Shown here in pieces: positions 3,484 to 56,525 of a DNA stretch of 64,000 nt. Every line of letters starts with the position of its first letter. The stretch's first letter is position 1. The stretch lies in assembly GCA_046160485.1 (NCBI GenBank), contig JBJXGV010000073.1:12076-76075 (forward strand). The letters are read 5' to 3'. This DNA comes from a bacterium. Lineage in GTDB: Bacteria; Orphanbacterota; Orphanbacteria; JBJXGV01. A program made the translations under genes and the position numbers. Under the pieces are notes generated by a model, which was not told the origin of the DNA, searched no databases, and saw only the letters and a program-made list of their open reading frames with translations.

Positions 3484-3711
3484 CCTCACACGTAGCGTGC
3501 GCGGCACGTGTTCGACATCGCCACGATCATCATCGGGTGTCGCCCGAGCACCCGCGCGGCACTTTTTGCCCTCCCTTAATCCGTTCTTTATTCGCAAGAC
3601 CCAGAGTTGCCACCTGTTCGTCACAGAGGACGGCGCGCGTTTTCGTGGTGATTTCGAATCCACCGGGAAGCGGCTGTCCTTGCACGAGGGACCGGAAGCG
3701 CGGAGGAGACG

Positions 3712-4977: not shown

Positions 4978-5054
4978 GGCGAGGGCGGCATCCTTGCGTC
5001 GCCGTGGCGCGGAGACTTCACTGGCTCTTAATCGAATCTTTACGTTTCATCGCG

Positions 5055-5100
5055 ATCATATCGAGCAATCATTCGCCCATAATCACGACGCTGGAATCGA
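5055..5100 (+). promoter_or_regulatory. Candidate Pho-box-like direct repeats upstream of pstS
   Basis: The sequence TTTCATcgcgATCATatcgagcaATCATtcgcccATAATCA has TCAT-containing half-sites at roughly 9-14 bp spacing. It ends about 15 nt before the pstS RBS. Confidence 0.3.
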
Positions 5101-5113
5101 AAGGAGATTCGAA

Positions 5114-6127: not shown

Positions 6128-6182
6128 CCCGGAGGCGCCACGGAGGCGCGGCGCACGGGCGCCGCGCCGGGGGCGAACGACG

Positions 6183-8880: not shown

Positions 8881-8919
8881 CATCGACGGGCGCCGATCAC
8901 GGCGGAGGGGTGGATCTGA

Positions 8920-18374: not shown

Positions 18375-18381
18375 GCGCTCA

Positions 18382-18864
18382 TCAGAGGTCGAGAAGTACG
18401 GTTGCTTCCCACGCGCCCGCGATGTCGCGAATCGAGAGACGATGGTAGGTCGCGGCCTTCACTTCTTTGTGGAGCGCGTGGCGCTTCGTATCGATCGCCT
18501 CGCCCCGCGCCGTCGCCTCGATCGCGGTATCAGAGATGTGCGTGATGTCGAACTCCCGGAAGAAGAGCGCCTCCGCGCTCGCGGCGCCGATGAGTTCGTT
18601 GAGCCACACCGCGAGGAGTTCCTCGCGATTCGGTGCGGCGCATGCGATGGGCCGCGCGGTTCGCAGTTCGACGCGATCCAGATCGGTCATGAGCGCGAAC
18701 GTGGCGCGCGCAGCCGCCGCAAAGAGCGCGCGCATGCCGGTCGCGCGAATCCGCAGCAGAGCGTCACTCGGGTGATCTTCCTCTTCGAACTCGGAACTCA
18801 ATGATTTGCTCACGATCGCCGAAAAGTGGTCGAAGTCCAAGAATGGCTCACCGTCAATTGACAC
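18382..18864 (-). CDS. Archease (RtcB activator)
   Basis: The 160-aa protein has N-terminal FEEEDHPSDALLRIRATGMRALFAAAA (archease H-x-x-D motif) and C-terminal KAATYHRLSI...GAWEATVLLDL. It lies immediately upstream of rtcB, 7 nt away on the same strand. Confidence 0.75.
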   Translation of the reverse strand: MSIDGEPFLDFDHFSAIVSKSLSSEFEEEDHPSDALLRIRATGMRALFAAAARATFALMTDLDRVELRTARPIACAAPNREELLAVWLNELIGAASAEALFFREFDITHISDTAIEATARGEAIDTKRHALHKEVKAATYHRLSIRDIAGAWEATVLLDL

Positions 18865-30012: not shown

Positions 30013-30195
30013 TTAAGCCTTAAGCGCGACTGGCTTCCTTGCCGGTACGACGCTCGGGATTTCGCGGAAAGGGAAGTCCTCAGGCATGTCGTCCACAGCC
30101 TCTTCCCAACCCCGGTTGACTCCGCAGAAACGGGCGACGACCACGGCAAGGATCACGTAGGCCAAGACGAGCGCGAATGCTACAACGTACATCAT
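30013..30195 (-). CDS. Small single-pass membrane protein (60 aa), paralogous to 38769..38990
   Basis: The sequence MMYVVAFALVLAYVILAVVVARFCGVNRGWEEAVDDMPEDF aligns with the 73-aa protein at 38769..38990 (VIALVYLAIALVVARMCSINSRWEDLVDRIP). A strong RBS GGAGGGAGG precedes it. Confidence 0.5.
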   Translation of the reverse strand: MMYVVAFALVLAYVILAVVVARFCGVNRGWEEAVDDMPEDFPFREIPSVVPARKPVALKA

Positions 30196-30484: not shown

Positions 30485-31720
30485 CTACGTGCGCGGGTCT
30501 GCTGGTGGTCGGGGAGCGGACGCTGTCTTGAAGCGGACGGCGACCCGATCGACTTGATCCTGAATTAGCCGAACCAAGCGAGCGAGCATTTCAGCGTGGC
30601 CGAGCGACACGGAATGTCCGATCGGCAGATTGACCACGCCAGCAGCCACGGCGCGGGCGACCGGAAAGAGGCCGCGTGCGGCCGCCGAGCCAGGGGCCAT
30701 GAACTTCCGTGCGAGTGGAAGATCGGGGACCGCCGGGGAGAAGTACGCGCCGGTCTCAACGCCTTCGGACTCCAGTACCGATCGCAACGCGTCGCGAGAG
30801 AGGCCGAACTCTTCGGCGTGAACGCGAATCGAAAAATCACGGAACACGGGGAACGTGCCAGGCAGCGACGACTGAAAACCAATTCCGGGGATGTCGTTCA
30901 GAGCGGCTCGATACGTTCTCGCGAGCGCGCCGCGTCGTTCGATCTCCGTTTCGAGACTTTGGAGCGATCTGTCGGCCAGCGCCGCCGAGATCTCAGGCTG
31001 ACGTGCCGACGCGCCACGGCCCGTCCAGTCTCCTGCCACGCTGCGCCCATAGTTTCGCGCGGCCTGAAGTTCGGTCGCAAGACGCGCGTCGGCGGTGGTA
31101 ACCGCCCCACCCTCGCCGCCGCAGACCAGCTTGGACGGAGTAAAAGAGAAGACCTCAGCACTGCCGAGGGCGCCGACGTTTCGATCCGCGGCGCGTGCTC
31201 CGACCGCGTGTGCCGCGTCGAATATCAATCGCAGTCGGCGGCGCGCGGCGATCGACTCGAGGGCTGCAGCCGCCGCAGGGAAACCGGACGTGTGCACCGC
31301 AAGAATCGCAGACGTTCGCGGTCCGACGGCCGCCTCTGTCGCGACGGGATCGAGATTCCACGAATCCGCGTCAATGTCGACGGGGCGCGGGGTCAGACCG
31401 GCCGCCATGATGGCCTGGAGAACAGGCGGGAACACGTAGGCGGGTACGATGACCTCGCCCTCGAGTCGGAGTGCCTGAAGTAAGAGTGTCATCGCCGAGA
31501 GGCCGGAGGAGAATGCGATCGCGTAGGCCGCGCCCGTCTGTGTTGCAAGCGCGCGTTCGAATTGGCGCACGCGTGTTCCCTTCGTGAACTCACCCGACGC
31601 GAGGATTTGAAGAATCTCCGGCGCGAGCCGCTCAGAGTCGACGGACACCGGCCCGTAAAGCGGGAGGCCTGGCGCGAACGCGGGTTCACCGCCGAGAATC
31701 GCGAGTCGTTCAACAGACAT
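30485..31720 (-). CDS. DegT/DnrJ/EryC1/StrS-family PLP-dependent sugar aminotransferase
   Basis: It shows fold-type I aminotransferase features and the DegT-type PLP-Lys context FSFTPSKLVCGGEGG. Confidence 0.85.
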   Translation of the reverse strand: MSVERLAILGGEPAFAPGLPLYGPVSVDSERLAPEILQILASGEFTKGTRVRQFERALATQTGAAYAIAFSSGLSAMTLLLQALRLEGEVIVPAYVFPPVLQAIMAAGLTPRPVDIDADSWNLDPVATEAAVGPRTSAILAVHTSGFPAAAAALESIAARRRLRLIFDAAHAVGARAADRNVGALGSAEVFSFTPSKLVCGGEGGAVTTADARLATELQAARNYGRSVAGDWTGRGASARQPEISAALADRSLQSLETEIERRGALARTYRAALNDIPGIGFQSSLPGTFPVFRDFSIRVHAEEFGLSRDALRSVLESEGVETGAYFSPAVPDLPLARKFMAPGSAAARGLFPVARAVAAGVVNLPIGHSVSLGHAEMLARLVRLIQDQVDRVAVRFKTASAPRPPADPRT

Positions 31721-31729
31721 GACGTCATT

Positions 31730-34700
31730 ATGCCACGCGCGGAGTGTGAACCGTCTCTACGTTGTGCCTCAAATTCGCCGCGTGGTAGACTGCCTTTCGT
31801 GACTGAACCATCGCGAGCACGGGCGGACGACGGCCGCGTCCCAACTTGGCTCCTCGCCGCGTTTTTTGTCTCCGGTGGCGCCGGCCTCGTCTATGAAATC
31901 GTGTGGGCGAAGGTCCTCTCGTACACGCTGGGCAATTCCCTCTTCGCGATCTCGACCGTCATCTCCGCTTTCTTCGGCGGTCTTGCACTCGGCGCGTTCG
32001 TGCTCGGTCCGCCCCTGGCGCGCGCGGGTGCGAACATTCGCCGTTATGCCATCCTCGAGGTCGGAGTTGCGGTGCTCGGCATCCTTTCGGTGCCCGCGCT
32101 GCGAGCGATTGACCCGCTTTTCATCGAAATCCATCGCACGCTCGGCCCCAGTTTCCCTGTGTTTCTCGCGATCCGATTCGTCGTGGTCTCGGCGCTTCTG
32201 CTCGTTCCGACGGCGCTCATGGGCGCCACGCTTCCGCTGCTCGTCGCTCACGCCGAAGGCCGGCGCTTCGGCGGCGCGCTCTCCCGTCTCTATGCGGCGA
32301 ACACGTTTGGCGCGGTGTGCGGAACGCTTCTCGCCGCGCTCGTGCTCATTCCGGCGCTAGGGCTCGTCGGGACCGCGCTTTTCGCGGCGGCATGCAATCT
32401 TGCCGCCGGCGCGCTCGCGTGGATGCGACGCTCGGAGGACCGATCCGTACCCGCCGCCGCCGACCGCGTCTCGGCAGCGTCGGTCGAGCCTGATCCCGCG
32501 CCTCTTGCGCCGACCACCGATCCATCGCGGGTATACCTTCTCGCGCTGATTGCCATTTCCGGGTTCGCGGCACTCCTTCTCGAAGTCAGTTGGACACGCG
32601 TGTTGACGCTCGTAATCGGCTCTTCCGTGATTTCCTTCGCGATGGTGCTCGCGTTCTATCTCCTCGGCATCGCTGGGGGCAGCGCGCTCATCGCATCCCG
32701 GCTTAGCCGTCTCGCGCGCCCGCTCGTCGTCTTCGCGTATCTCGAAATCGCGTTGGCGCTCCTCGTGCTCTCGCACCTCTACCTGTTCCCGCAGCTTCCC
32801 GGGGCGTTTCTGAAGATCATGCTCGACCCGCGGATGAACTTGCCGCTCTACCTTGGGGCTCAGGCGCTACTCATCGCCGCGCTGATCGTCCCGCCGTGTT
32901 TGTTTCTCGGCGCGCTGTTTCCACTCTCGGCGCGACTCCTTTTCACGAACGACGCGGGGCGCGCGACGGGGTTGACGTACGCGGTGAACACGTTCGGCAC
33001 GATTCTCGGTTCTCTCGTCACCGGATTCGTGCTCATCCCGGCGATCGGATCGCGACGCACGATCATCGCGGGCGCGCTTATTTCGCTCGTTGTGGGCCTC
33101 GCGGCGCTTGTGCGATCGAGTTTGGTCTCGTCGCGCCGCGTGATTGTCGGCGCAGGGTCTGTGGCGATCGCGTTGATTCTCATCTTCGCGGCGCCGGAGT
33201 GGGATCTTCGAGTGCTGACGGCCGGCATCTTTCGTCCGGCCGCGGCTGGCGCGATCGCCGGGATAACGGACCCGCGGCGCTCGTCGCAAGACCGCCTCAC
33301 CGAAGCCTTCGCCGTCGACTCGGTTGTCTTCTACAAGGAGGGCGTCAACGCGACGGTCTCGCTCAATCGCACGACGGCAACAGGCGATCTCTTCCTCAAA
33401 ATCGGAGGGAAGACGGACGCCTCATCCGGCGATATCGAGACGCAGCTCCTCTCCGGTCACCTGCCGATGCTTTTCGCGCCGGATAGCGCCAAGGTGATGG
33501 TGATCGGCCAAGGATCGGGCATGACGCTGGCCGGAGTGCTGAAGTATCCGGTGGTGTCGGCTGAGATTGTCGAGATCGAAGATGCAGTGCTGGAAGCGTC
33601 GCGCGCGTTCCATGCAGCCGGTCAAGACCCGCTCAATGATCCGCGGACGCGAATCACCCTCGAGGACGGCCGCACGCGGCTCGCGGTCGAGGAAGGATTG
33701 TTCGACGTCGTTATTTCAGAGCCGTCGAATCCGTGGCTCGCCGGCAACAACAACTTGTTCACGACCGACTTCTACAAGCTCGTGCGATCGCGGCTCGCAC
33801 CTCACGGCGTTTTCGGTCAGTGGATTCAGCTGTACGAGATTTCCCCGGAGACGCTTTCGTCTCTCTTGACTGCGTTTCACTCCGTGTTCTCGAATACCTA
33901 CGCCTTTCTGACGTTCAACGCCGACCTCATCCTAATCGCCGTCCCGGCCGACGTCCCATTTCGCTTCGACCGGCTTCATTCGCCGGAGGTTGTCGCGGAA
34001 CTCGCGCGCATCGGGTTGCGCCCTCCCGAACTGATCCTCTCGTACTACTCCTGTGAACTGGGGGAACTTCCCGCGTCGCTCGTGTCGGGCATCGCGAACA
34101 CCGACAACAACGCGCGCGTCGAGTACCGCGCACCGATCGATCTCTTCAAGGTGGGACGTCAGGATCTGGCCGGCGGGTCGACAGCGTCACTCGCCGAGAT
34201 GATTCCGCGCTCGCGTGAAATCCCATTCGCGAGAACTCTCGATCTTCGGGACGTCGCGATATGGCGCGCTGAGGGCCTCGCGCGGCGGAACCGCTTCGGA
34301 TGGGCCCGCGAGGCCGCCGAGTGGCTGAACGATCTCGGGCGCGTTAGCACCGCGGATTCGCTGAACTACGCAATTTCGCTTCTCGAGGTTGAGGCTCGCT
34401 CCAAGGCGATCACGACGGACGTGGTGCGGATGGCACGCGCCGGCCGGGTCGCTGACGCGGAGCGGGCCCTCCGCGAATTGTTGGCGCGAACCCCGGGCGA
34501 TCCCGTGCTTCTCTTCAACTTGGGATTGTTCTTGATGCAGTCGGACCGCGACATGGAGGCGGATTCGCTCTTTGCGATCGTCGCAGACGTGGGGATCGGC
34601 TCGCCCGTCGTGCGTTCGCGAAACAATCGCGGCATCATCGCGATGCGGCGCGGAGACCCGGCGAGCGCCCTCGCCTTCTTCCGCGATGCGAGAGCCGTGC

Positions 34701-34867
34701 GGCCGGACCTGCCGGAGTCGTACTTCTACGAGGCCAAGGTGCTCAACGGCATCGGCCAGCCGTCAGACGCGCTCATCGTCGTGGATCAGGGACTCGTCGT
34801 ATGCCCGAATGATCCTACGTTGATCGCCGCGCGGGCGGAAATCGCCGCCGGAGCGCCCCGCCAGTAG
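31730..34867 (+). CDS. Fused MFS-like polytopic membrane domain / spermidine-synthase-like (PABS) domain / C-terminal TPR protein
   Basis: At least 12 TM helices are followed by a PABS-like AdoMet fold (VMVIGQGSGMTLAGVL...VISEPSNPW...FYKLVRSRLAPHGVF) and then TPRs. The start is uncertain: the ATG at 31730 is an internal Met of the tracked ORF, and a GTG lies at about 31799. Confidence 0.65.
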   Translation: MPRAECEPSLRCASNSPRGRLPFVTEPSRARADDGRVPTWLLAAFFVSGGAGLVYEIVWAKVLSYTLGNSLFAISTVISAFFGGLALGAFVLGPPLARAGANIRRYAILEVGVAVLGILSVPALRAIDPLFIEIHRTLGPSFPVFLAIRFVVVSALLLVPTALMGATLPLLVAHAEGRRFGGALSRLYAANTFGAVCGTLLAALVLIPALGLVGTALFAAACNLAAGALAWMRRSEDRSVPAAADRVSAASVEPDPAPLAPTTDPSRVYLLALIAISGFAALLLEVSWTRVLTLVIGSSVISFAMVLAFYLLGIAGGSALIASRLSRLARPLVVFAYLEIALALLVLSHLYLFPQLPGAFLKIMLDPRMNLPLYLGAQALLIAALIVPPCLFLGALFPLSARLLFTNDAGRATGLTYAVNTFGTILGSLVTGFVLIPAIGSRRTIIAGALISLVVGLAALVRSSLVSSRRVIVGAGSVAIALILIFAAPEWDLRVLTAGIFRPAAAGAIAGITDPRRSSQDRLTEAFAVDSVVFYKEGVNATVSLNRTTATGDLFLKIGGKTDASSGDIETQLLSGHLPMLFAPDSAKVMVIGQGSGMTLAGVLKYPVVSAEIVEIEDAVLEASRAFHAAGQDPLNDPRTRITLEDGRTRLAVEEGLFDVVISEPSNPWLAGNNNLFTTDFYKLVRSRLAPHGVFGQWIQLYEISPETLSSLLTAFHSVFSNTYAFLTFNADLILIAVPADVPFRFDRLHSPEVVAELARIGLRPPELILSYYSCELGELPASLVSGIANTDNNARVEYRAPIDLFKVGRQDLAGGSTASLAEMIPRSREIPFARTLDLRDVAIWRAEGLARRNRFGWAREAAEWLNDLGRVSTADSLNYAISLLEVEARSKAITTDVVRMARAGRVADAERALRELLARTPGDPVLLFNLGLFLMQSDRDMEADSLFAIVADVGIGSPVVRSRNNRGIIAMRRGDPASALAFFRDARAVRPDLPESYFYEAKVLNGIGQPSDALIVVDQGLVVCPNDPTLIAARAEIAAGAPRQ

Positions 34868-36517: not shown

Positions 36518-38758
36518 GTGAAGCAGCGAAAAGCCAAGGCGAAAACGAGCACCGAGACGGGGCGCCGAAGCGCGCCCGCGACTGGCGTCTCTTCCACTGC
36601 CATCGTCGCTGGCTGCGTCGCGATCGCGTTGCTCGTGCGGCTCGTCTATCTCGGAGAGATCCGGGTTCTCCCATTCTTCGAGTTTCCGATCATCGATGGC
36701 GCCGAGTACCTCGCGTGGGCGCGGCGGATTCTCGCGGGCGAGGCGATCTGGCGCGAGGTCCCGATCCACGGGCCCGTCTATCCGTACTTCCTAGCGGCCG
36801 CGCTCGCTCTCTCCGGGAAGAGCATCACGTTTGCCATTTGCATGCAGTTTCTTCTCGGCGCCGCCTCCGTCGTCTTCGTGTACCGCATCGCGCGCCGTGC
36901 GTTCGGCCAGGGCCCAGCGGTCTTGAGCGCGGCGATCGCCGCGGTCTATCCGGCGTTCCTCTATTTCGAAGGACAGCTGCTCGCACCGTCCGTTGTGCTC
37001 CTTCTCAATCTCGCGCTGCTCGACAGGCTCGGTGCTTTGCCGGTCAAGCCGACGCCGACGGCGCTCATCGTCCCTGGGATCTTGCTGGGGCTATCGATAG
37101 CAACGCACCCAAGCGCGCTCGTGCTTGTCCCCGTGATCGCGTGGTGGTTGGTCCGGCGCGCGTCCGGCGCGTCACCGAGCGCGGAACCGCGAGCGCGTCG
37201 CGGCGCGCGCGCAATTCCGGCGCTGGTCTTCGTCGCCGCGACGGTGTGCGTCATCGGTCCGATTGCCCTTCGTAACGCTTCACTCGGAGGAGGCCTGACG
37301 CTTCAGCGAAACGTCGGCAAGAACCTCTACATCGGTTTGGGACCGACCGCCGATGGCACGGCGAACATCGCACCCGGCGCACAGTGGGACCGGCTTCGAC
37401 GGCAGGCGTGGGACGCGGGCGCGCGATCGTCTGCGGAGGAGTCGCGCTACTTTGTTTCGGAGACCGTCGGATTTGCGTTGCGAAACCCCATCCGCGTCGT
37501 CGGGACCGTTATCAAGAAGGCGATGTTCTTCGTCAGCGGAATTCATGTCGACGCGAGCCAAGACTTTCGATACTTCCAGACGCACACTCGTGTGTTGAGT
37601 TTTCCTCTGCCAGGCGCCGCTGTCTTGATCCCGCTCGCGTTGCTCGGAATGCTCCGGTACTTCCGGCGCGCGCCGCTCCTCGTGCTCTACGTCTGCGGCT
37701 ATCTCGCGGCGTCGTTCACCTTCGCGTTCGCTACGCGCTACGCGATCCCGGCGCACCCGGTGTTCCTCGTCTTTGCCGCGGCGGCGCTCACTGATCTGGC
37801 GCGCGCCGCCCGCGCGCGCAAAGTGGAGTCGCGCGAGATCGCACTTCTCTGCGCGTTCTTATTGGTCGCGAATCTCGATCCCTTCGGATTGCGGAAGCGG
37901 CAACTCATTCACGTCCCCGGCTTCATCGCGAAGATTCTCGTCGATACCGGACGGCTCGACGATGGATTGCGCGCGTACGAGCAAGCGGCGCGGGAGTACC
38001 CGACCGATCCCGACATCCGCAACGGGTGGGGCACGGCGCTCGATCGCGCGGGGAGGCGCGACGAGGCTCGCGCGCAGTACGAAGCCGCGTTGGCGGCAGC
38101 CCCCGAGTTGTTCGAAGCGCGCTTCAATCTCGCCGCGCACGCCCACGAGGCGCGATCTTTCGCGGACGCGCTTGCCGGATATGGCGCGGCGATCGAAGCC
38201 GCGCCTTGGCGCGCCGATGCGCGACTCAACCTCGGCGCCGTCTACGCGGAGATGGAGAGCCTCGACCACGCGGCCGCGCAGTTCGACACCGCGCTTCAGC
38301 TCGCGCCCGGTTTCGACGAGGCGCTCGCGAATCTCGCGATGATCGAATCGCGCCGCAAAGATCCTGCCGCCGCGGCCGCGATTCTCAAACGGCTCGCCGC
38401 GAAAGAGCCCACGCCCGAGCGGTTCGTGAGCCTCGGCATCGCGCTCACGGAGTCGCAGGACTACCTCGGCGCGCAAGACATCTTCCGTCAGGCGCTCGCG
38501 CTCGATGACGCTTATCTCCCCGCGCTATTTCATCTCGGAATGAATCTGGCTGGGTTCCAACGTTTCGAAGAGGCGATCGCGATCTGGGAGAGGATCCTCG
38601 CGAAGGAGCCGGCAAACGAGGTCGCGCGCACGGCGATCGCGGAGGCGAACGCACGCATTGCAGCACGCGCCGCCGCGGCGAGCACACCGGCCCAGACTCC
38701 GGATGAAAAAGAAGAAGGCGGCGCGCCCTCGAAGGACACGCCGCCCGGTACTCCTTAG
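36518..38758 (+). CDS. GT-C glycosyltransferase family 39 (PMT/ArnT-like) membrane protein with C-terminal TPR repeats, paralogous to 21649..23784
   Basis: The same architecture is seen, and the motif PVYPYFLAAALAL matches PVYPYFLGALFRI in the first copy. It has C-terminal TPRs and a proline/glutamate-rich tail. Confidence 0.7.
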   Translation: MKQRKAKAKTSTETGRRSAPATGVSSTAIVAGCVAIALLVRLVYLGEIRVLPFFEFPIIDGAEYLAWARRILAGEAIWREVPIHGPVYPYFLAAALALSGKSITFAICMQFLLGAASVVFVYRIARRAFGQGPAVLSAAIAAVYPAFLYFEGQLLAPSVVLLLNLALLDRLGALPVKPTPTALIVPGILLGLSIATHPSALVLVPVIAWWLVRRASGASPSAEPRARRGARAIPALVFVAATVCVIGPIALRNASLGGGLTLQRNVGKNLYIGLGPTADGTANIAPGAQWDRLRRQAWDAGARSSAEESRYFVSETVGFALRNPIRVVGTVIKKAMFFVSGIHVDASQDFRYFQTHTRVLSFPLPGAAVLIPLALLGMLRYFRRAPLLVLYVCGYLAASFTFAFATRYAIPAHPVFLVFAAAALTDLARAARARKVESREIALLCAFLLVANLDPFGLRKRQLIHVPGFIAKILVDTGRLDDGLRAYEQAAREYPTDPDIRNGWGTALDRAGRRDEARAQYEAALAAAPELFEARFNLAAHAHEARSFADALAGYGAAIEAAPWRADARLNLGAVYAEMESLDHAAAQFDTALQLAPGFDEALANLAMIESRRKDPAAAAAILKRLAAKEPTPERFVSLGIALTESQDYLGAQDIFRQALALDDAYLPALFHLGMNLAGFQRFEEAIAIWERILAKEPANEVARTAIAEANARIAARAAAASTPAQTPDEKEEGGAPSKDTPPGTP

Positions 38759-38768
38759 TGTCGCTCGA

Positions 38769-38990
38769 TCATCCTGACGAAGGCTGGGACGCGATATTGC
38801 CTTCGTCGTCGAGCAACTCATCTTTGCTCGGGATCAGAGTCGACCGCACCTTCGCGTTTGGGATCTTCGGGCCTGGGATGCGATCGACCAGGTCTTCCCA
38901 ACGCGAGTTAATCGAGCACATTCGAGCGACAACGAGCGCGATCGCCAAGTAGACAAGCGCAATCACGCCGAGAATCACGGGGAGTACCAT
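38769..38990 (-). CDS. Small single-pass membrane protein (73 aa), paralogous to 30013..30195
   Basis: See the alignment above. It is the last gene of the ParA operon. Confidence 0.5.
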   Translation of the reverse strand: MVLPVILGVIALVYLAIALVVARMCSINSRWEDLVDRIPGPKIPNAKVRSTLIPSKDELLDDEGNIASQPSSG

Positions 38991-39017
38991 TGCTTATCCC
39001 CCGTACGAGCCGGCTCT

Positions 39018-39842
39018 TTATCCGCTCGATCCGTTCCCACCTTCTCGTCCCCCCTTCGGTTCGAGACGTGTCGGAGCGCTTGGCCCCTCGAAAAACTCGG
39101 CGAACTCCTCCTGGGTGAGACCGAGTTCACGCCGGTACGTCTCTTCCCGCGACAGGACCCGCTCCTGCCCTGCGTACCTCACAAATTGTGAGTGTCTGTC
39201 GTGTGTACCTCCTGTGGTTGTGTTCCGTGAGAACACTCGCTCCGCTGGTTGGACCGACAAGCCGAGGGAAGAGATCTCCTCCGGCAAATGCTCCGAGGTA
39301 GGGATGGGAATTGGCGCAGGGTGTTCGACGCGCGTTGGCGCGGATGGCGGCGTTGCGTGCGGCGCGAGTTCGGCGCGCGAGGACAACACGACCGCTGTCC
39401 GCCCGTCGCGCGTGCTGACGATGCGCGCGCAGATAATTTCCACCGCGACCGCATTGCGATACGCGTGAAACTCGTGGCCTTGCGCGTTGATCGATTTCGC
39501 GCGATCGCTCTGGACGACGCCGAGCGCACGAATCGGCTCTTCCCAATTCACGTTCCAGAGTTGATACATGCGCCGCACGATCGGGAGATTCTCCGAGAAC
39601 CACTGGACGTGCGCCGCAAGACGAGTGACGACGTCGTCGGGGGCCGCGCCTTCGACGTCCGCGATCACCAGCCGCCGCCGAACGTCGAGCGCGATCCAGT
39701 CCACGGTGCCCGCATTCGCGATCGGAAGTTCCGAGTCGATGATCGAGAGCGCCGGCTCGACGGCGTCGCCCCGCCCCTTGAGCGTCGCTCGTAGATCGAT
39801 CGCTCCGGGCGATTCGAAGAAAACGTCTATGGTCGGTGTCAT
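39018..39842 (-). CDS. Hypothetical two-domain protein (globular N-domain, Pro-rich linker, short charged C-domain)
   Basis: Its 274 aa show no recognisable catalytic motif. The linker is PHATPPSAPTRVEHPAPIPIPTSEHLP and the C-terminal segment is LSREETYRRELGLTQEEFAEFFEG. It lies 10 nt downstream of the MinD-like gene. Confidence 0.45.
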   Translation of the reverse strand: MTPTIDVFFESPGAIDLRATLKGRGDAVEPALSIIDSELPIANAGTVDWIALDVRRRLVIADVEGAAPDDVVTRLAAHVQWFSENLPIVRRMYQLWNVNWEEPIRALGVVQSDRAKSINAQGHEFHAYRNAVAVEIICARIVSTRDGRTAVVLSSRAELAPHATPPSAPTRVEHPAPIPIPTSEHLPEEISSLGLSVQPAERVFSRNTTTGGTHDRHSQFVRYAGQERVLSREETYRRELGLTQEEFAEFFEGPSAPTRLEPKGGREGGNGSSG

Positions 39843-39851
39843 CCTGTGGCC

Positions 39852-40676
39852 CTATCCGCTGGTCGTCGTCTGGCGCGACCAAACTGCGTCGAAGTAGGAG
39901 TATGGCGGGCGCCCCGCTGCTGTCGGACGCGTCGCGAGCATGCGCGCGATGCGCGAGAAGACCGGATCATTTGCGTGTGTGTCGATTTCGGCCGCCGGTG
40001 TTTCCGGCGGCGTGAACGTCGCGAGCCCGCCGTACGAGCGGACCTGTCGCCCAAGGTAGCGCACGCAGACATCGGAGACTCTGTGGAACGCCTCCTGCGC
40101 CTCCGCGGGCCGCGCCGCTCGGTTGACGAGAATCCGGATGCGGGCATCGGGAAGCGCCGAGTGAATTTCTTTCACGCACGAGTAGCCCTCCGCGGCACCT
40201 TCGCGCCCCGGCAAGACGACGACCAGATACTCCTCGGCCGAGAGCGCATACGGGTCGCTGGTCGAGATCAGCGAGATGGGGCCGTCAAGAATGAGCGCTC
40301 CCGTGTCCGCCCACGATTGCGTGAGCTCATCGAACGACGTGCGGTCGGACGGATGCGGGATGGGAAGCCCGTACTCCGCGTTGCGGCGCGGCACGATCAC
40401 TCCGGCGCCGACCTGCCATTCATGGGCGACACAACCGAGTTGGCGGCAGGCGTGGGCGACGCGGGCCGCGATGAATGTCTTCCCGCTGCCGGGGCGGAAC
40501 GCGGTGATGAAGAGCGTGCGCGGGCGTTGCGGGAGTGGCGCTGGCTTCGAGTTGCGCACCGAGAAAAGCGAGTCGCGTTCAGGCGCCGGCGCGGGGTCCA
40601 CCGCGGCTGGACCCGAGAAGAAGAGCGGGCTAAAGTCGGCGATCGATCGCCCGGGCTTCCTTGTGTCTCTATCCAT
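39852..40676 (-). CDS. Degenerate MinD/ParA-superfamily P-loop protein
   Basis: The internal start MDRDTRKPG is used. The Walker-A-like RTLFITAFRPGSGKTFIAARVA and MinD-like LVVVLPGREGAAEGY and ILVNRAARP segments are present, but the deviant KGGxxK lysine of ParA is lost. The upstream part of the tracked ORF overlaps ParA and is likely untranslated. Confidence 0.45.
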   Translation of the reverse strand: MDRDTRKPGRSIADFSPLFFSGPAAVDPAPAPERDSLFSVRNSKPAPLPQRPRTLFITAFRPGSGKTFIAARVAHACRQLGCVAHEWQVGAGVIVPRRNAEYGLPIPHPSDRTSFDELTQSWADTGALILDGPISLISTSDPYALSAEEYLVVVLPGREGAAEGYSCVKEIHSALPDARIRILVNRAARPAEAQEAFHRVSDVCVRYLGRQVRSYGGLATFTPPETPAAEIDTHANDPVFSRIARMLATRPTAAGRPPYSYFDAVWSRQTTTSG

Positions 40677-41526
40677 GACGCCGCGCTCCCGACGAGGCGA
40701 TCGTTTCCAATGTAATGCCGCGGCGCGCGACCACTCCGCGCGACGCGATCCGGCGCGCCGGGCGTCGGAAGCGTTCCTCGAGTGCGATCTCGTCTGCGAA
40801 GGCGGCGAAGTCGGCGGCGCCGCGTGAGTGTGGCGCGTACTCGAAGATCGTTTGTCCGCGCTGGAACGCCTCCCGGAGTTTGACATTGACACGTATCGCG
40901 GTCGCATACATCTTCGCGCCGAATCGTTGCCGCAACTCAGCGAAAACCTCGCTCGCGAAACGGGTCCGTTGGTCGAACATCGAACACAGCGCGCGAACCT
41001 CCAATGGGCGGTGAGTCTCGTGCCGCACCATGTCGATCATCTCCGAAAGCTGTTCCAGTCCCGGGAGGGCGAACGGCGAAGAGTCGACCGGAACGACGGC
41101 CGCGTCGGCGGCCGCGAGTGCGTTGATGGTCATAAGCCCGCCGGCCGAGGGACAATCGATGACGGCGAAGTCGTAGCGCGGAGCGACACGGGCGAGCTTA
41201 TCGCGCAATCGACTCTCGCGTGCCGGGGCACCGTACAGCGCGAACTCAGCTGCACGCAAGATGACAATGCCCGGCGCGAAATCGAGATTTTTGGAATGCG
41301 TGCGAATGATGTCGTCGAGCGGTACGAACGAATCGATGAGCACATCGTAGATGCTCTTTTCGGAGCCGTCGTCGACAAAGCCGAGAGCGAGCGAAGCGTG
41401 AGCGAGCGGGTCGATATCGACGAGCAGCGATCTCCGGCCGCGAGCGGCCAACGCGGCCGCCAAATTCACGGCCGCCGTAGTCTTACCGCATCCGCCCTTC
41501 TGGTTGACGATCGCGATCGTCTTCAC
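40669..41526 (-). CDS. ParA/Soj-family deviant Walker-A ATPase
   Basis: The sequence MKTIAIVNQKGGCGKTTAAVNLAAALA and the Walker B FAVIDCP are present. No parB or parS is evident nearby. Confidence 0.85.
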   Translation of the reverse strand: MKTIAIVNQKGGCGKTTAAVNLAAALAARGRRSLLVDIDPLAHASLALGFVDDGSEKSIYDVLIDSFVPLDDIIRTHSKNLDFAPGIVILRAAEFALYGAPARESRLRDKLARVAPRYDFAVIDCPSAGGLMTINALAAADAAVVPVDSSPFALPGLEQLSEMIDMVRHETHRPLEVRALCSMFDQRTRFASEVFAELRQRFGAKMYATAIRVNVKLREAFQRGQTIFEYAPHSRGAADFAAFADEIALEERFRRPARRIASRGVVARRGITLETIASSGARRHG

Positions 41527-41631
41527 GGGCTTGCCTCATTCCCCAGTCGCTGCCGGGGATGGAGTTTCGCGGTGCCGATGTCCGGCGAGATTCCTGCGCG
41601 CTCTGCCTCTATTCGTCTCCGATGGCGGCTA

Positions 41632-41676
41632 GCAAAAAAGAAAACGAGACCTGCGCGGCTTTCGTGCCGGGGTCTC
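41632..41676 (-). terminator. Canonical intrinsic terminator located in the 5' leader about 105 nt upstream of the ParA start codon
   Basis: The minus strand reads GAGACCCCGGCACGAAAGCCGCGCAGGUCUC followed by GUUUUCUUUUUUG. No minus-strand ORF lies upstream of it before the divergent LmbE gene. Confidence 0.5.
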
Positions 41677-41846
41677 GCTGGATGCTCGAACTCAAAGTTG
41701 TCGTCCCCGGGGTCGCGGCTCCGCATCGCCGCTGCCCACTCCGCCCCTGCGCTCGAGACGACATCGCCGAGATATGTGCGTCGTATCCGAGGCGCCCAGA
41801 TGGAGATGTAGTGAAACAGCTCGCACGGTAGAAAGGGGCCAGATTC

Positions 41847-42578
41847 TTGTCAACAAGAAAATCGAGTTACGGCATTGATTTGCTCGCGTTCGGCGCACAC
41901 CCGGATGACGTTGAACTGACCGCGGGCGGGACTTTGGCGAAGGCGGTCCGCCAGGGCTACGCGGTCGGGATCGTCGATGCCACGCGAGGCGAGCTCGGTA
42001 CGCGCGGATCCGTCGCGGTCCGCGCACGCGAAGCAGCGAGGGCCGCTAGGTCGCTCGGCGTGAGAGTGCGAGAGAACTTAGGACTTCCCGACGGGCATCT
42101 TTCCGCTGCCCCCGATGGACTGAAGCGGGTCGTCGAAGTGCTGCGCACCCTCCGCCCGCGCGTGGTCATCGCCCCGTATTGGGAGAGTCGTCATCCCGAC
42201 CACCGCGCACTTTCAAACCTTGTTCGGGATGCATGCTTCTTCGCCGGGGTCAAACGCTGGCCTGCGCGAGGTCTCGCCGCCCGTCCGGCGAAACTCATAT
42301 TCGCAATCGCGTATACCGGCGCGGCTCCGAGCTTCTACGTCGACGTCTCCCGGGACTTCTCTAGGAAGCTAAATGCAATTCGCGCATATCGATCTCAAGT
42401 TGTCGGTCAAGACCGCCTCGGGGATGTCTTTCCGTCTGGCCGACCGCTGTTAAATGCCATAACTGTGATTCACGCCGGCTACGGCGCGTCGGCTCAGGTG
42501 GAGTACGCCGAACCGTTCTGGATGCGCGAGGCGATGCGAGTCGACGACGTGACCCGTCTTCCGCTCATCTCGATGTGA
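41847..42578 (+). CDS. LmbE/PIG-L-family N-acetylglucosaminyl deacetylase (BshB-like)
   Basis: The zinc-binding motif AHPDDVE and a downstream HPDH are present. A palindrome TTCTTGTTGACAAGAA abuts the start codon. Confidence 0.75.
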   Translation: MSTRKSSYGIDLLAFGAHPDDVELTAGGTLAKAVRQGYAVGIVDATRGELGTRGSVAVRAREAARAARSLGVRVRENLGLPDGHLSAAPDGLKRVVEVLRTLRPRVVIAPYWESRHPDHRALSNLVRDACFFAGVKRWPARGLAARPAKLIFAIAYTGAAPSFYVDVSRDFSRKLNAIRAYRSQVVGQDRLGDVFPSGRPLLNAITVIHAGYGASAQVEYAEPFWMREAMRVDDVTRLPLISM

Positions 42579-42941: not shown

Positions 42942-43727
42942 TCAAGAGTCGCTGGCTGGCTTGACCGGATCGAGCGGGAAGCGGAACTCGGGATCCGCGG
43001 CTGACAGTTCGGCGGCAACCTGGCGTAGCTTCGACTCGTACGCCTTTTCGTCGCCGGAGCCGAGCGAGCGCTTCCATGCGTTGTAGTGATCGAGAAACTC
43101 ATCGCGCCGCTGACGAAGGTTTTCCTCCCGCGCGAGCCCTTCGATGTCGCGACTGATGTGGAAGATTTCGCCAGGCGAGAGTTCCTTTCGGATGTTGAGG
43201 TACTCGCCGCGCATGTAAGAAAGAATCGAGAGGTACTTTTCGTAGCCCTCGGAGAGCTTCATCAGAACATCCGCCAATGCCCGCCGGTCCTCGCGCATCT
43301 GGCGTGTCAGCGCGCCGGCGATTTGGTAGTACGCCTTGCCGCGTAGGACGGCATCGCGGCCGCGCGAGTCCATCGTCGACAACGCAGTCCGCGGAGCGTC
43401 GAAGATTCCTTGCGAAAGAAGCAGATAGTCCGCGTTCACCTTGTACGTGATGAATTTCACGTAGTGATCGCGCGTGTACTGCAGCCGTTCGTAGATGTCG
43501 CTTTCGTATGCGGAGACGTACTGGTTCATCCAGCTGTGGTATTTCGCGTCGACGAGTGACGAGAGGAGCAACGCGAGATAGACGTTGACGTCTTCGTCGT
43601 AGACGTCGGCGTTCGATTCGAGGCCGGTCGCGATCCGCGAGTTGAGGAGCGAGTCCATGACGAATGAAACGACGGGCTCGGCGTCGCCCTGCTGCTTCGT
43701 CGTATTCACGAACCGCTTGATTTCCAT
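42942..43727 (-). CDS. Hypothetical protein (261 aa), tyrosine/lysine-rich, no recognised domain
   Basis: It is a clean ORF with coding-like composition, and no other ORF of similar quality overlaps it. Confidence 0.45.
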   Translation of the reverse strand: MEIKRFVNTTKQQGDAEPVVSFVMDSLLNSRIATGLESNADVYDEDVNVYLALLLSSLVDAKYHSWMNQYVSAYESDIYERLQYTRDHYVKFITYKVNADYLLLSQGIFDAPRTALSTMDSRGRDAVLRGKAYYQIAGALTRQMREDRRALADVLMKLSEGYEKYLSILSYMRGEYLNIRKELSPGEIFHISRDIEGLAREENLRQRRDEFLDHYNAWKRSLGSGDEKAYESKLRQVAAELSAADPEFRFPLDPVKPASDS

Positions 43728-50800: not shown

Positions 50801-51214
50801 CTATCGCGACGCGAGGAGGCGCGTGACGAGCCCGATGAACGCGTCGAAGTCGACGATCGGCTTGCCGACGTACTCGTCCGCGCCGCTCGCGGCGAGCAGC
50901 GCCTCGCGATCGCCCTTCATCGTGTGCGCGGTCGCGAGCACGACCGGCACGTCCGCCGATCGCGGATCCGCTTTGATCAGCCGCGTGATCTCGAGGCCGT
51001 CGACGGGTTGCCCCTTGTAGATGCTTCCCGAAAGCGACACGTCCATGATGACAAGCGCGACCTCGCGCGCCGTCACGAGTCGCAGTGCTTCCGCGGGATC
51101 CTCCGTGTGGTGAACGGTGAACCCGCCGCGCCGCTCGAGAACGCGCGTGATCAGCTTCACGTTGCTCGGCTCATCCTCGACGAGAAGAATTCGCGCCGCC
51201 ACTTCGCCGCTCAT
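50801..51214 (-). CDS. Single-domain CheY-like response regulator
   Basis: The receiver fold shows ILLVEDE, the phospho-acceptor D in LVIMDVSL, and a KPI motif. Confidence 0.8.
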   Translation of the reverse strand: MSGEVAARILLVEDEPSNVKLITRVLERRGGFTVHHTEDPAEALRLVTAREVALVIMDVSLSGSIYKGQPVDGLEITRLIKADPRSADVPVVLATAHTMKGDREALLAASGADEYVGKPIVDFDAFIGLVTRLLASR

Positions 51215-53631
51215 ACGTTGCGAGCCTCGTTCGCCATCGCGAACCGCGCTTCCTCGTCCCGCGCGATGCGCGCGAGCGCACGATTGAGAATGCCGGGATC
51301 CTCACCCAGACGCGCCTTCGGAATGACGCCCCACACGTGCCCCGCGCGAAGGAGGCGACCGTTCGCACCGCTGGCGAGTTCCGGGTGGTTCGTGACGATG
51401 AGAATCTCCGGCCGCTCCGACGGCGCCATTCGCGCAACTTCGCGCAGCACGCCGAACCCGTCGAGCTCCGGCATGTCGAGATCCAGAAGCACCAGATCGA
51501 TCGGCGGACTCGCGCTTCGCAGCGCGTCGAGCGCGGCGACGCCGTTTACCGCTCGTGAGACGATCGTTCCTTGCGTGCGCGTGATCCGCTCGACGATCGT
51601 CGCCATCGCCGAGTCGTCGTCGGCGACGAGCACGCGCCGCACGCGGTGAACGCCGCGCGACGGCAACGCGTGGAGGTGGCGCAAAAGCTCCTCGGCGGAG
51701 ACGGGCTTACGAACGATCGGGATCGCGCTGTGGTCGGAGCCTTCCGCGGGAATTCCCTTCCCCGCGCTCTCCGGCGAGCCCGTAACGATGACGATCTTGC
51801 AATCCCAACTGAATTGCGCGGCGCGCGTGACGAGATCGACGCCCGTTTGCACCGCGGCGCCTGGAACCTCGGGCAATCCGAGATCCACCGTCATCGCGAT
51901 CGGGCGCATCTCCTCGGCAAGATGGAGCGCTTCATCGGCGGTACGCGCGACCATCGCGCGGAAACCGCCGGAGCGGATCACGCGGTAGAGATAGCGCGCG
52001 AACGAAGGGTCGTCCTCGACGACGAGTACGAGGGGCGCGGTCGGGTCGCAGTCGGCGAGAATGGCTTGCGCCTCGCCGGCGATGACACCCTCGGTGCGCT
52101 CGGTCTCGCGCGCCGCCGGGAGCGCGAACCAAACGCGCGTGCCGCGGCCTTCGCCATCGCTGGCCAGCTCGATCGTGCCGCCCATGAGTTCGACGAGGCT
52201 CTTCGAGAGAGCGAGCCCAAGGCCCGTTCCGCCATAACGCCGCGTCTGCGATCCGTCGACCTGCGTGAATTTCTTGAAGAGTTCGGGCTGCTTTTCCCTC
52301 GAGATGCCGATTCCCGTGTCGGCGACTTCGACGACCACGGAATCGTCCTCGCCGCGAAACGCGCGCACCGTCACCGAACCCTCGTGCGTGAACTTGATCG
52401 CGTTGCCCACGAGGTTGATCAGAACTTGCCGCACGCGTTCGGAATCGGCGAGCGCTTCGGGGAGCCCCTCCTCGACGTGAAACGAGAGCCGGAGGGAGCG
52501 CGTCTTCGCCTGAACGCCCATGAGCCGCTCGGTCTCGCGAAACTCGGCGTTCATCTCCACCGGTTCGCGCGCAACCTCGAGCCGCCCCGCCTCGATCTTC
52601 GTCAGGTCGAGCAGGTAATTGATCAGCGAGAGAAGATGAAGACTGGAGCGATGGGCGTCGCGCAAGAGGTCCATCCGTTCCTTCTCGTCGTCGCAAATCC
52701 CCTCGAGAATGAGCGACAGAAAGCCAATGATCGACGAGAGGGGCGTGCGCAGTTCGTGCGACATGTTCGCGAGAAATTCGCTTTTGAGGCGGTTGGCCTC
52801 CTCGGCGCGGTGACTCTGCAGAAGCAGCTCTTCGTTCTTTCGCGAAAGTTCGAGCGTGCGCCGCTGCACGAGCGACTCGAGTTGCCCTGTGTTCTGCTCG
52901 ATGAGCCGTCGCGACTCGACGAGATACGCGGTCATGACGTTGAAAGACTCGGTGAGTTCGCCGACCTCATCGCGTGTCTTCGACTCGAGCCGCAGTTCGA
53001 AGTTGCCGGCGCTGATTTTCTGCGCGGCCTTCGTGAGCGAACGCAGCGGCTGCGCGATCTGCCGGCTCACGAGGCCCATCGCGACGCTGTTCGCCGAAAC
53101 GATCAGGAGCGTGAAGAGGAGAATCGCGCGGCGGTTCGCGCTCGATCGTGCGTAGACGCCATCGAGCGAGTAGAGAACGGAAACATGTCCGAGCACGGCG
53201 CCCGCGGGCGAAATGATCGTTTCGGTGATCGTCTCGGTGTGCGCGGCGTTCGCAAGGCGGCTTCGATGGCGCGCCTTCTCCGCGTGATTCTCGACCGGAG
53301 GAAAGCTCGCCGCGACGTCGCCCTGCGCGTCGTAGACCTGCGCCGTCAGCACCTCGGGTACGCTGCCGAATCCGGTGAGGCGCGAGGAAACCGCGTAGAG
53401 GTCTTCGAAATCGAGCGCCGGCGCGAGGCTCGTTCCGATGGCGTTCGTCACGTGCCGGATCTCGCGCCGAAGCGCGGTCAGCGCGTCGCTCTCGTGCTGC
53501 GGCGGGAAATACAGATAAACGAACGTCGCGTTCGCGATCAAGAAGACGATCGCAACGGCGACGAATTTTAGGCCGAGCGAATTCTTGAACAGAGTGATCC
53601 GAAGCGTAGACGCGATCGAGTTGATGGCCAT
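51211..53631 (-). CDS. Hybrid sensor histidine kinase (TM sensor, HAMP, HisKA, HATPase, two receiver domains)
   Basis: The H-box is MSHELRTPLSSI and the ATP lid is DTGIGI and GGTGLGLALS. Two REC domains follow (VLVVEDD... and VLVADDD...). The stop overlaps the downstream response regulator start. Confidence 0.85.
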   Translation of the reverse strand: MAINSIASTLRITLFKNSLGLKFVAVAIVFLIANATFVYLYFPPQHESDALTALRREIRHVTNAIGTSLAPALDFEDLYAVSSRLTGFGSVPEVLTAQVYDAQGDVAASFPPVENHAEKARHRSRLANAAHTETITETIISPAGAVLGHVSVLYSLDGVYARSSANRRAILLFTLLIVSANSVAMGLVSRQIAQPLRSLTKAAQKISAGNFELRLESKTRDEVGELTESFNVMTAYLVESRRLIEQNTGQLESLVQRRTLELSRKNEELLLQSHRAEEANRLKSEFLANMSHELRTPLSSIIGFLSLILEGICDDEKERMDLLRDAHRSSLHLLSLINYLLDLTKIEAGRLEVAREPVEMNAEFRETERLMGVQAKTRSLRLSFHVEEGLPEALADSERVRQVLINLVGNAIKFTHEGSVTVRAFRGEDDSVVVEVADTGIGISREKQPELFKKFTQVDGSQTRRYGGTGLGLALSKSLVELMGGTIELASDGEGRGTRVWFALPAARETERTEGVIAGEAQAILADCDPTAPLVLVVEDDPSFARYLYRVIRSGGFRAMVARTADEALHLAEEMRPIAMTVDLGLPEVPGAAVQTGVDLVTRAAQFSWDCKIVIVTGSPESAGKGIPAEGSDHSAIPIVRKPVSAEELLRHLHALPSRGVHRVRRVLVADDDSAMATIVERITRTQGTIVSRAVNGVAALDALRSASPPIDLVLLDLDMPELDGFGVLREVARMAPSERPEILIVTNHPELASGANGRLLRAGHVWGVIPKARLGEDPGILNRALARIARDEEARFAMANEARNV

Positions 53632-56244: not shown

Positions 56245-56525
56245 TCGATGTTGTTCTCGCGGAATCCCCGACGCGCCCCGTCGCCGCGAGCGGCGCTCGC
56301 GGCGAACTGGAACAAACGACCCAAAGCGATAACCCATACCGAGGCGTCTTGTCCACACAGTATCGGCGGCTCGGTAAGCCGGCGTGAGATGCATGCGGCG
56401 CGGCGGCGCGAAACAAAGGATGCGAGAGCTTCATTGCACGCGCTCTATCCGGCTGCAATAATGGGCGCTGCCGCGCGCGTGCGGCCGCGTCTCCGACGCA
56501 TCGCGACGCGCCCGCACGAGGAGAG

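Follow-up and report, generated by a model that had tools for sequence, protein, structure and literature searches.

Which cargo does a ParA ATPase position when the DNA around it encodes no ParB? The question is raised by a four-gene operon in a bacterium of the Orphanbacterota (assembly GCA_046160485.1, contig JBJXGV010000073.1, positions 12,076–76,075 of the forward strand); this whole stretch of 64,000 nucleotides is called the window here, and all coordinates given without a locus name refer to it. The operon consists of four minus-strand open reading frames (ORFs) arranged head to tail, encoding a ParA and three proteins that we name P2, P3 and P4. We regard it, with a probability of roughly 55%, as a reduced descendant, peculiar to its lineage, of a three-gene module for positioning by ParA that occurs in many lineages and whose ancestral cargo was probably glycogen granules. 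The ancestral parts are a ParA fused to a CBM48 domain, an FlhG/MinD-derived pseudo-ATPase carrying an N-terminal LGRGL peptide, and a catalytically dead NucS_C-like protein ending in an acidic-aromatic motif.

The initial annotation had described the same four genes and proposed a cargo-positioning system working without ParB. All four ORFs are present and tightly packed: ParA and P2 overlap by 8 nt (ATGGATAG), with the P2 ATG lying inside the last ParA codons, and P2/P3 and P3/P4 are separated by 9 and 27 nt. The annotated span (38769–41690) is correct at its lower end, while its upper end runs 164 nt past the ParA start into a region with in-frame stops. The absence of ParB, flagellar, pilus and chemotaxis genes was borne out by domain scans of the genes within the 64-kb window, and parS-like sites occur there at chance level (two matches with three mismatches, a result equalled by 13 of 100 shuffles).

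The ParA ATPase and Its CBM48-Bearing Relatives

The ParA gene (40669..41526, minus strand, GTG start) encodes a 285-aa Soj-type ATPase whose deviant Walker A motif retains the signature lysine (QKGGCGKTT, residues 9–17). It matches Pfam families AAA_31 (157.6 bits against a cut-off of 27, E = 4e-46) and CbiA (66.8 bits against 25.4, E = 2e-18) and stays below the cut-off of the NCBIfam ParA_partition equivalog (122.1 versus 180). Its description as a bona fide ParA stands. A motif NVKLREA contains a basic position occupied by Lys or Arg in all 89 of 89 homologues where the motif was found; we take this residue, aligned by motif, to correspond to R189 of B. subtilis Soj, the DNA-binding arginine.

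The closest homologues are mostly about 360 aa long, some reaching about 450 aa, and carry the C-terminal domain AMPK1_CBM (PF16561); among the 120 best homologues listed, 107 measure at least 340 aa, and most of them possess this domain. Such ParA-CBM48 proteins come, where a source is named, from Nitrospiria, Phycisphaerae, Sedimentisphaerales and Myxococcota, among others. In the window ParA the chain stops at residue 285, without the CBM48 of its closest relatives. A frameshifted or hidden CBM48 was considered and rejected, as a CBM48 hidden Markov model (HMM) found no such ORF anywhere in the window in any frame. Judged by its homologues, the window ParA falls into an extensive clade of ParA-CBM48 fusions and is not the orphan it had been called.

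P2, a Pseudo-ATPase with a ParB-like N-Terminal Peptide

The gene directly behind ParA (39852..40676, minus strand) encodes the 274-aa protein P2. Searched as single sequences, P2, P3 and P4 match no Pfam or NCBIfam family. An AlphaFold2 model of P2 built on a 13-sequence alignment has a core (residues 51–220) predicted mostly with a local distance difference test score (pLDDT) above 90, preceded by residues 1–49 with pLDDT below 50. The top Foldseek matches of the model are FlhG (4rz2, E = 1e-10), FleN and MinD, with template modelling scores of about 0.55–0.6. Sequence landmarks comprise FRPGSGKTF, LVVVLPG and ILVNRAARP. The degenerate P-loop F-R-P-G-S-G-K-T (40476..40499, minus strand) retains GKT and has an invariant Arg in place of the signature Lys; R61, G65, K66 and T67 are invariant in the alignment. 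About 50 residues are deleted relative to FlhG-like proteins, including the DxD/switch I region, and the switch I aspartates (Walker A′) are missing, with an invariant EWQ...GVxVPR in their place. According to the model, P2 is thus a pseudo-ATPase of MinD/FlhG fold, which agrees with the annotation of the second protein as MinD-like and devoid of the signature lysine. At the position of the membrane-targeting helix of FlhG and MinD, P2 possesses a conserved C-terminal SYFxxVW helix (F262 and W266 invariant; modelled helix 261–273). The N-terminal DQAxxLR motif of FlhG is missing from P2, and the window holds no flagellar genes.

Run against 1.84 billion representatives, a P2 profile recovered, after its own lineage, two groups: canonical FlhG proteins starting with DQAxxLR, and proteins starting with [KR]xLGRGLxxxSHxFLS. 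We refer to the latter as P2-like. In their alignments the opening [KR]xLGRGLxxxSHxF is the best-conserved part of the protein and is followed by a disordered linker. Homology of the window P2 with this group is indicated by hhalign (98.3% probability, E = 2e-14 with the P2-like protein of locus L015) and by HMM matches to non-lineage P2-like proteins. The window copy carries a degenerate version of the peptide at residues 6–21 (RKPGRSIADFSPLFFS; 40614..40661, minus strand), likewise followed by a disordered linker (residues 22–50); it reads KPGRSI versus RLGRGL and keeps only the Arg and the aromatic tail.

The N-terminus of chromosomal ParB proteins (Spo0J, Caulobacter ParB) has the consensus ...[KR]GLG[RK]GLxALL. 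The P2-like motif resembles it in the LG[RK]GL core, in its placement at the very N-terminus and in being followed by a disordered linker. In chromosomal ParB a conserved N-terminal peptide with a central Arg/Lys activates ParA; together with DNA the peptide alone stimulates the ATPase, and two juxtaposed peptides are far more effective (PMC12462528). A search with a 29-aa LGRGL peptide against PDB sequences gave no match, so the resemblance draws on the literature and on known ParB N-termini. From the ParB-like peptide and its decay together with the loss of ParA (see below), we infer that P2 is the ParA-activating partner. The initial annotation had named the MinD-like protein as a possible adaptor and had suggested looking for a basic ATPase-stimulating peptide at the N-terminus of the partners; P2 is indeed the best candidate, and a putative peptide of this kind is present in the P2-like family, in the window copy in degenerate form.

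P3, a Putatively Inactive NucS_C-like Domain

The P3 gene (39842–39018, minus strand) encodes 274 aa in three parts. An N-terminal domain (residues 1–156; 39375..39842, minus strand) is confidently modelled by AlphaFold2; a disordered Pro/Ala-rich linker (157–229; 39156..39374, minus strand; pLDDT below 50) varies in length and sequence among homologues; two short C-terminal helices (232–251; 39090..39149, minus strand) bear YRRELGLTQEEFAEFF, whose alignment columns are invariant in the lineage. The last element is the [VL]TxEE[IF]xxF motif of the P3 family (LTxEEFxEFF), present in the window P3 as LGLTQEEFAEFF and also ending P3-like proteins in unrelated loci.

Foldseek matches of the N-terminal domain are SfsA, NucS (2vld), EndoMS and the Shedu nuclease SduA (probability 0.96–1.0, with 0.99–1.0 for NucS/EndoMS; E about 2e-3), and a profile of 15 diverse family members matches P. 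abyssi NucS (2vld) with E = 6.9e-6. Pfam NucS_C is matched by 4 of these 15 members and the window P3 alone has no Pfam match. The Pro-rich linker had been recognized correctly by the first reading of the sequence, and "no known domain" holds for Pfam searches with the window sequence, not for its NucS_C-like PD-(D/E)xK fold and the profile comparison. Since the catalytic E-x-K columns are not conserved (D/T/E/L/V/N/I/Q at the E site and E/A/R/T/S/D at the K site; A-D-V-E-G in the window), the domain is almost certainly non-catalytic, judging from the alignment. The DNA-binding and dimerisation domain found at the N-terminus of NucS is missing: the NucS_C-like part starts at about residue 10 of P3, and the profile alignment spans NucS residues 125–223 only.

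The ParA-P2-P3 Module in Other Bacteria

ParA-CBM48 is encoded directly upstream of P2-like genes in loci L015, L016 and L019. A Myxococcota locus (L013) has ParA-CBM48 with a probable P2, a downstream gene that matches P2 weakly and lacks the LGRGL motif. A metagenome scan with the P2-like alignment yielded 65 loci with G+C contents of 39–69%. Among non-redundant non-lineage P2-like genes with at least 300 bp of upstream sequence, 38 of 42 directly follow a CBM48-bearing ORF, and for 33 of the 42 the ORF upstream is also recognized by the ParA HMM. A gene for a P3-like N-terminal domain lies directly downstream in 33 of the 35 cases with at least 650 bp on that side; an iterated P3-like HMM found exactly one match per locus, and the P3-like proteins end in KVTTEEIMEFLH, PLGEEEIASFMKM, LTDEEVGEFMEF and similar sequences. 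An intact Walker A motif (KGGxGK[ST]) is found in none of the 44 P2-like proteins linked to ParA-CBM48.

A variant of the module connects the two partners directly. In L081 (1415–2347, plus strand), L083 and L084 the gene after ParA-CBM48 encodes an LGRGL peptide (GRRLGRGLEDVSDAFLS), a Pro-rich linker and a P3-like domain in one protein, with no MinD-like domain; the ParA-CBM48 of the variant is about 408 aa long from the predicted Met, within a stop-to-stop ORF of 438 codons. This fusion of the peptide to a P3-like domain ties P2 and P3 to one function by the Rosetta-stone argument.

Loci L017 (4221–6954) and L018 (2182–4779) encode LGRGL-bearing FlhG-like proteins with an intact KGGTGKS, located beside a plain ParA without CBM48. 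L018 also has a P3-like protein, and L017 has an unrelated acidic-repeat protein instead. These proteins may represent the active-ATPase ancestor state of P2.

A Probable Link to Glycogen

The CBM of the related ParAs matches that of AMPK beta1 (1z0n, E = 5e-10) as well as the CBM48 of SEX4 and LSF1. Its glycan-binding tryptophans are nearly invariant among distinct ParA-CBM48 fusions: W100 is present in 150 of 153 and W133 in 151 of 153. Position 126 (K126) is Lys or Arg in all. The surroundings of the module are consistent with this. Among 139 neighbour ORFs from 26 loci, the commonest Pfam families are GH57 (13), BE_C, the C-terminus of 1,4-alpha-glucan branching enzyme (10), and DUF4912 (6); the GH57/BE_C neighbours were confirmed on individual proteins. 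A GH57 branching enzyme gene is located 0.5–1.6 kb from P2 in 16 loci, corresponding to 12 of 22 loci when redundant copies and lineage members are set aside and 2 kb or more of downstream sequence is required. In 8 of 20 loci the opposite strand encodes, downstream of the module, a free-standing CBM48 protein of about 100 aa. The initial annotation had noted no known machine nearby, which is true of the window and not of its relatives; their GH57 neighbourhood points to a specific cargo that it had not considered.

In six loci (L030, L033, L035, L036, L047 and L052; e.g., L033 3593–8123) a recurrent opposite-strand block follows the module. It encodes the free CBM48 protein (about 100 aa), a branching enzyme with GH57 and BE_C domains, a DUF4912 protein and another protein of family GH57; one more component associated with glycogen could be DUF4912.

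Neither a GH57 branching enzyme gene nor a free CBM48 gene lies next to the window operon. The nearest glycogen gene, 12 kb from it, encodes a glycogen/starch phosphorylase (53737–56394, minus strand; PF00343, 1055 bits), indicating that the organism metabolises alpha-glucan. A hybrid histidine kinase and a response regulator (50801–53631) are encoded beside the phosphorylase.

Proposed Mechanism

We hypothesize that ParA-ATP dimers would sit on the nucleoid, as the basic residue aligned by motif with the Soj arginine is kept. The N-terminal peptide of P2 would dock onto the ParA dimer and trigger ATP hydrolysis in the manner of the ParB N-terminus, with the P2 core and P3 forming the cargo-side complex. 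In the ancestral system the cargo would be an alpha-glucan (glycogen) granule or its biosynthetic machinery, held by the CBM48 of ParA and the free-standing CBM48 protein, and granules would be spread or partitioned along the nucleoid. In the window genome, where the grip on glycogen is presumably lost because ParA has no CBM, P2-P3 would have gained the small membrane partner P4; the system may now position a membrane-associated P2-P3-P4 complex, or may keep part of the old function. The membrane link of this complex would run through P4.

A more far-reaching version, which we hold only tentatively and would rate somewhat below even odds, sees the operon as the eroded tip of a phylum-spanning ParA system for glycogen granules, in which a P2 dimer would present two LGRGL peptides as an analogue of the closed ParB clamp and the dead NucS domain would be a third structural component.

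Stepwise Erosion in the Lineage of the Window

Among 5.8 billion clustered proteins P2 has 14 relatives and P3 has 11; the P2 and P3 alignments found no relative in GTDB species-representative genomes. P2, P3 and P4 are adjacent in every recovered lineage locus. Taken alone this proves little, since the whole 17-kb neighbourhood is syntenic within the lineage. The view that synteny reflects mere genome relatedness was examined as such: it holds within the lineage and is overcome by the occurrence of the module in loci of 39–69% G+C with unrelated flanks. The co-occurrence of the genes that the initial annotation wished to see checked is therefore seen for P2-P3-P4 in the lineage and for ParA-P2-P3 in unrelated lineages, and fails for ParA in a sister clade.

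The lineage displays a graded series of losses. In L001, L005 and L011, ParA is 375–378 aa long and has a C-terminal CBM48/AMPK1_CBM; in the window and L007 it is 285 aa long with no CBM; in L008 and L010 there is no ParA gene, and P2 lies directly behind a PIG-L gene. W133 of the CBM is replaced with Pro in the window's lineage relatives. As read from these sequences, the glycogen link is eroding in the lineage, through the W133 substitution, the disappearance of the CBM and that of ParA itself. The P2 N-terminus of the ParA-less clade (RKRSSVLSEITPLV versus KRLGRGLEDFSHLFFS) has lost the Gly-Arg (GR to SS or NP) and the aromatics. The series, from point decay of the CBM through CBM loss to ParA loss with co-decay of the peptide, could serve as a natural test of the interdependence of the parts.

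Such a series could also mean that we are looking at an evolutionary relic, a system being dismantled in which the window ParA no longer works with P2-P3, and P2-P3-P4 have a ParA-independent role or none. This is the alternative that survives best, and we consider it unlikely. Besides the stepwise loss, it would account for the degenerate window peptide, for a P2 deprived of about 50 MinD-core residues and all switch motifs, and for the rapid evolution of the operon: in the two closest pairs, the ratio of nonsynonymous to synonymous substitution rates (dN/dS) is 0.09–0.15 for ParA, 0.19–0.24 for P2, 0.24–0.39 for P3 and 0.17–0.29 for P4, compared with 0.03–0.04 for the housekeeping neighbour CdaA. 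All these values are nevertheless well below 1: the four genes are under purifying selection, yet fast-evolving. The start/stop overlap of ParA and P2 is retained as well. Moreover, the central Arg of the peptide and its DFSxLFFS part are kept wherever ParA is present and lost only where ParA is missing, and this tracking argues that the ParA-P2 link is still selected in the window's clade.

Several points weigh against a reduced glycogen-positioning module. The sister clade keeps P2-P3-P4 without ParA, hence the trio has some ParA-independent value. Because the window peptide is degenerate and its ParA lacks the CBM, the glycogen reading fits the relatives and not demonstrably the window genome. 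Even among the relatives, 10 of the 22 loci have no GH57 neighbour, and a Phycisphaerae locus (L014) has ParA-CBM48 without P2 or P3. The loci were de-duplicated by exact sequence only, and the counts include related genomes. Since the LGRGL motif served as one of the two patterns in the metagenome scan, its ubiquity among the scanned loci is partly a matter of construction; the P2 profile search supports the motif independently. A ParA that holds its own cargo is atypical among ParA systems. Finally, the ParA-P2 contact, the P2-P3 contact and the binding of glycogen by the CBM are all links that we infer.

Alternative Cargoes

The nuclease-like fold of P3 suggests a different cargo, namely DNA: the dead-nuclease domain could serve as a centromere-binding protein while P2 or the fused peptide activates ParA, tethering or partitioning a chromosomal region or a mobile element without ParB. 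The order of LGRGL peptide, linker and NucS_C-like domain in the variant loci L081, L083 and L084 does mimic the layout of ParB; NucS, SfsA and SduA are DNA-binding folds, and the ParA is Soj-like with a basic residue that we map by motif to the DNA-binding arginine. Nevertheless, we find this reading improbable, as the operon resides in a housekeeping chromosome setting with no mobile-element genes and neither a repeat array nor a parS-like site near it, and as it leaves unexplained why the CBM48 is nearly invariant and its glycan-binding tryptophans intact, and why a free CBM48 gene and GH57 genes occur nearby.

P4 (38769..38990, minus strand) brings in the membrane. It is, as annotated, a 73-aa single-pass membrane protein with one N-terminal hydrophobic helix; its conserved features are a juxtamembrane ARxCSINSRWExxxDRIP motif and an acidic (D/E)LL(D/E)(D/E) tail, and it is restricted to the window's lineage. 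The role of anchor that the initial annotation suggested for it is putative. A 60-aa paralogue (MMYVVAFALVLAYVILAVVVARFCGVNRGWEEAVDDMPEDF...) is encoded about 9 kb from the operon (30013–30195, minus strand), adjoining a DegT aminotransferase gene; it has the transmembrane segment and a VARxCxxNxxWE juxtamembrane motif as in P4, lacks the acidic tail and belongs to no Pfam family. The paralogue is kept at the syntenic site in the distant lineage member L011 (15910–16092, plus strand; HMM E = 3e-8 and 7e-8).

A spatial regulator of the FlhG/MinD type, placing for instance a division site or envelope machinery, would have P2 held at the membrane by its C-terminal amphipathic helix and P4, with ParA supplying nucleoid position; its appeal lies in the FlhG, FleN and MinD affinities of P2 in both structure and sequence, in the conserved SYFxxVW helix at the membrane-targeting position, in P4 itself and in the envelope glycosyltransferases of the flank, yet it is the least probable of the alternatives, given that P4 occurs in this lineage alone, with a paralogue located outside the operon, that no flagellar or division genes are nearby, that P2 lacks the ATPase switch used by MinD and FlhG for membrane cycling, and that conservation of the flanking genes stops at the lineage. 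A defence system combining ParA with a Shedu/NucS-like nuclease was rejected, as P2, P3 and P4 have no PADLOC match, the nuclease-like domain has lost its catalytic residues and the operon lies among housekeeping genes. ParA matches the PADLOC candidate model PDC-M28B over the Walker A region only (residues 3–39, 23 bits), and the candidate models PDC-S11 and PDC-S18 have about 57 residues of the nuclease fold in common with P3 relatives.

Comparison with Known Systems

The window ParA resembles that of chromosomal ParABS (Soj/Spo0J) in being Soj-type with a deviant Walker A motif. The system differs in having no ParB, with its CTPase and HTH domains, and no parS; the ParB-like peptide sits instead on an FlhG/MinD-fold pseudo-ATPase or, in the variant, on a NucS_C-like domain, and the ParA of the relatives carries CBM48. 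With FlhG (YlxH/FleN)-FlhF and MinD-MinE, which provide the best structural matches of P2 and, in the case of FlhG, the next group in the profile search, P2 shares the succession of an N-terminal peptide (in P2 a putative activator), P-loop core and C-terminal helix. It departs from them in that P2-like proteins have LGRGL, not DQAxxLR, in the loss of the signature Lys and switch I with the deletion of about 50 residues, and in a window without FlhF or any flagellar or Min context.

ParB-independent systems include McdAB, which positions carboxysomes, PomXYZ, which acts at the division site, and PpfA-TlpT, which positions chemoreceptor clusters. In all three the N-terminal basic peptide of a poorly conserved partner activates nucleoid-bound ParA without ParB, and PomXYZ resembles the present module in having two partner proteins (PMC13170346, PMC7993993). 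The partner folds are unrelated to P2 and P3, and in our case the ParA of the relatives itself bears a cargo-binding domain.

P3 is related to NucS/EndoMS through the C-terminal PD-(D/E)xK domain; it differs in lacking the conserved catalytic E-x-K and the NucS N-terminal domain, and in the added linker and LTxEEFxEFF motif. The C-terminal domain of the related ParAs is of the AMPK beta/SEX4/PTST type, with W100, K126 and W133 conserved. In contrast to those proteins, it forms part of a ParA ATPase; the window ParA lacks it, and in the lineage it is degenerate, with W133 replaced with Pro. Non-enzymatic CBM48 scaffold proteins control starch granule initiation in plastids, a conceptual likeness to ParA-CBM48.

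In the literature searched, no ParA system for polysaccharide granules is described, and neither a ParA-CBM48 protein nor a glycogen ParA system was found, most subscription journals lying outside its coverage.

Genomic Context of the Operon

A terminator-like hairpin (38746–38716, minus strand) with a 14-bp stem and a T-run begins 23 nt after the P4 stop and is the probable end of the operon; hairpins are no more numerous in the region than in shuffled sequence, so that its position alone is suggestive. At the other end, the intergenic region between ParA and a divergent PIG-L deacetylase gene (41527..41846; the PIG-L gene occupies 41847–42578, plus strand) presumably contains the promoter; upstream of ParA neither a match to the sigma-70 consensus nor repeats in excess of chance were detected. 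The flank on this side comprises tilS, hpt, ftsH, folP, cdaA and PIG-L; the other includes a convergent PMT_2/TPR glycosyltransferase, dTDP-sugar genes, an MFS-spermidine-synthase-TPR fusion and DegT. The operon is thus surrounded by chromosomal genes of housekeeping and envelope function.

A gene (42942–43727, minus strand) located between cdaA and the ParA/PIG-L region encodes a protein of 258–278 aa that has no Pfam family and a homologue at the same position in every lineage locus (L001–L012). Judged by position, it could be a CdaA regulator.

The window also encodes several very large TPR-tailed membrane proteins (21649–26222, 31562–34867 and 36518–38758). The set contains a TPR-only protein (21649–23784), a Dpy19-like/TPR protein, a PMT_2 glycosyltransferase/TPR protein and a fusion of MFS, spermidine-synthase-like and TPR parts of 1101 aa; the PMT_2/TPR and spermine-synthase/TPR genes adjoin the operon throughout the lineage.

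Further away, a complete Pho cluster (938–9633, plus strand) holds a PhoB-like regulator, a PAS/HAMP histidine kinase, a phosphate-selective porin O/P, a PstS-like binding protein, two permeases, an ABC ATPase and PhoU. It is followed by genes for a multihaem cytochrome of c554/c3-like type (12895–14160, minus strand), a 675-aa HEAT-repeat protein fused to a cyclophilin-type prolyl isomerase (14455–16482, minus strand), and an RtcB RNA ligase with its archease partner (16929–18864, minus strand).

Significance

ATPases of the ParA/MinD family are a general bacterial solution to placement, serving chromosomes, plasmids, carboxysomes, chemoreceptor arrays and division sites, and each new cargo or adaptor has been informative. 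ParB-less positioning by ParA is already known; the partner types and the implied cargo described here are new, and the window copy is an atypical, reduced one. Three "hypothetical proteins" of the window gain an annotation at the level of fold and system, and the module to which they are related is found in many uncultivated lineages as well as in Myxococcota, Phycisphaerae and Nitrospiria. For the distribution of bacterial glycogen granules no mechanistic explanation was found in the literature, and the module offers a concrete, testable candidate: a ParA that carries its own glycogen-binding module, a pseudo-ATPase with a peptide mimicking that of ParB, and a repurposed dead nuclease. If the more far-reaching version is true, no ParA-type machine for partitioning or positioning a polysaccharide storage granule would precede this one, in which the ATPase itself bears the cargo-binding CBM48.

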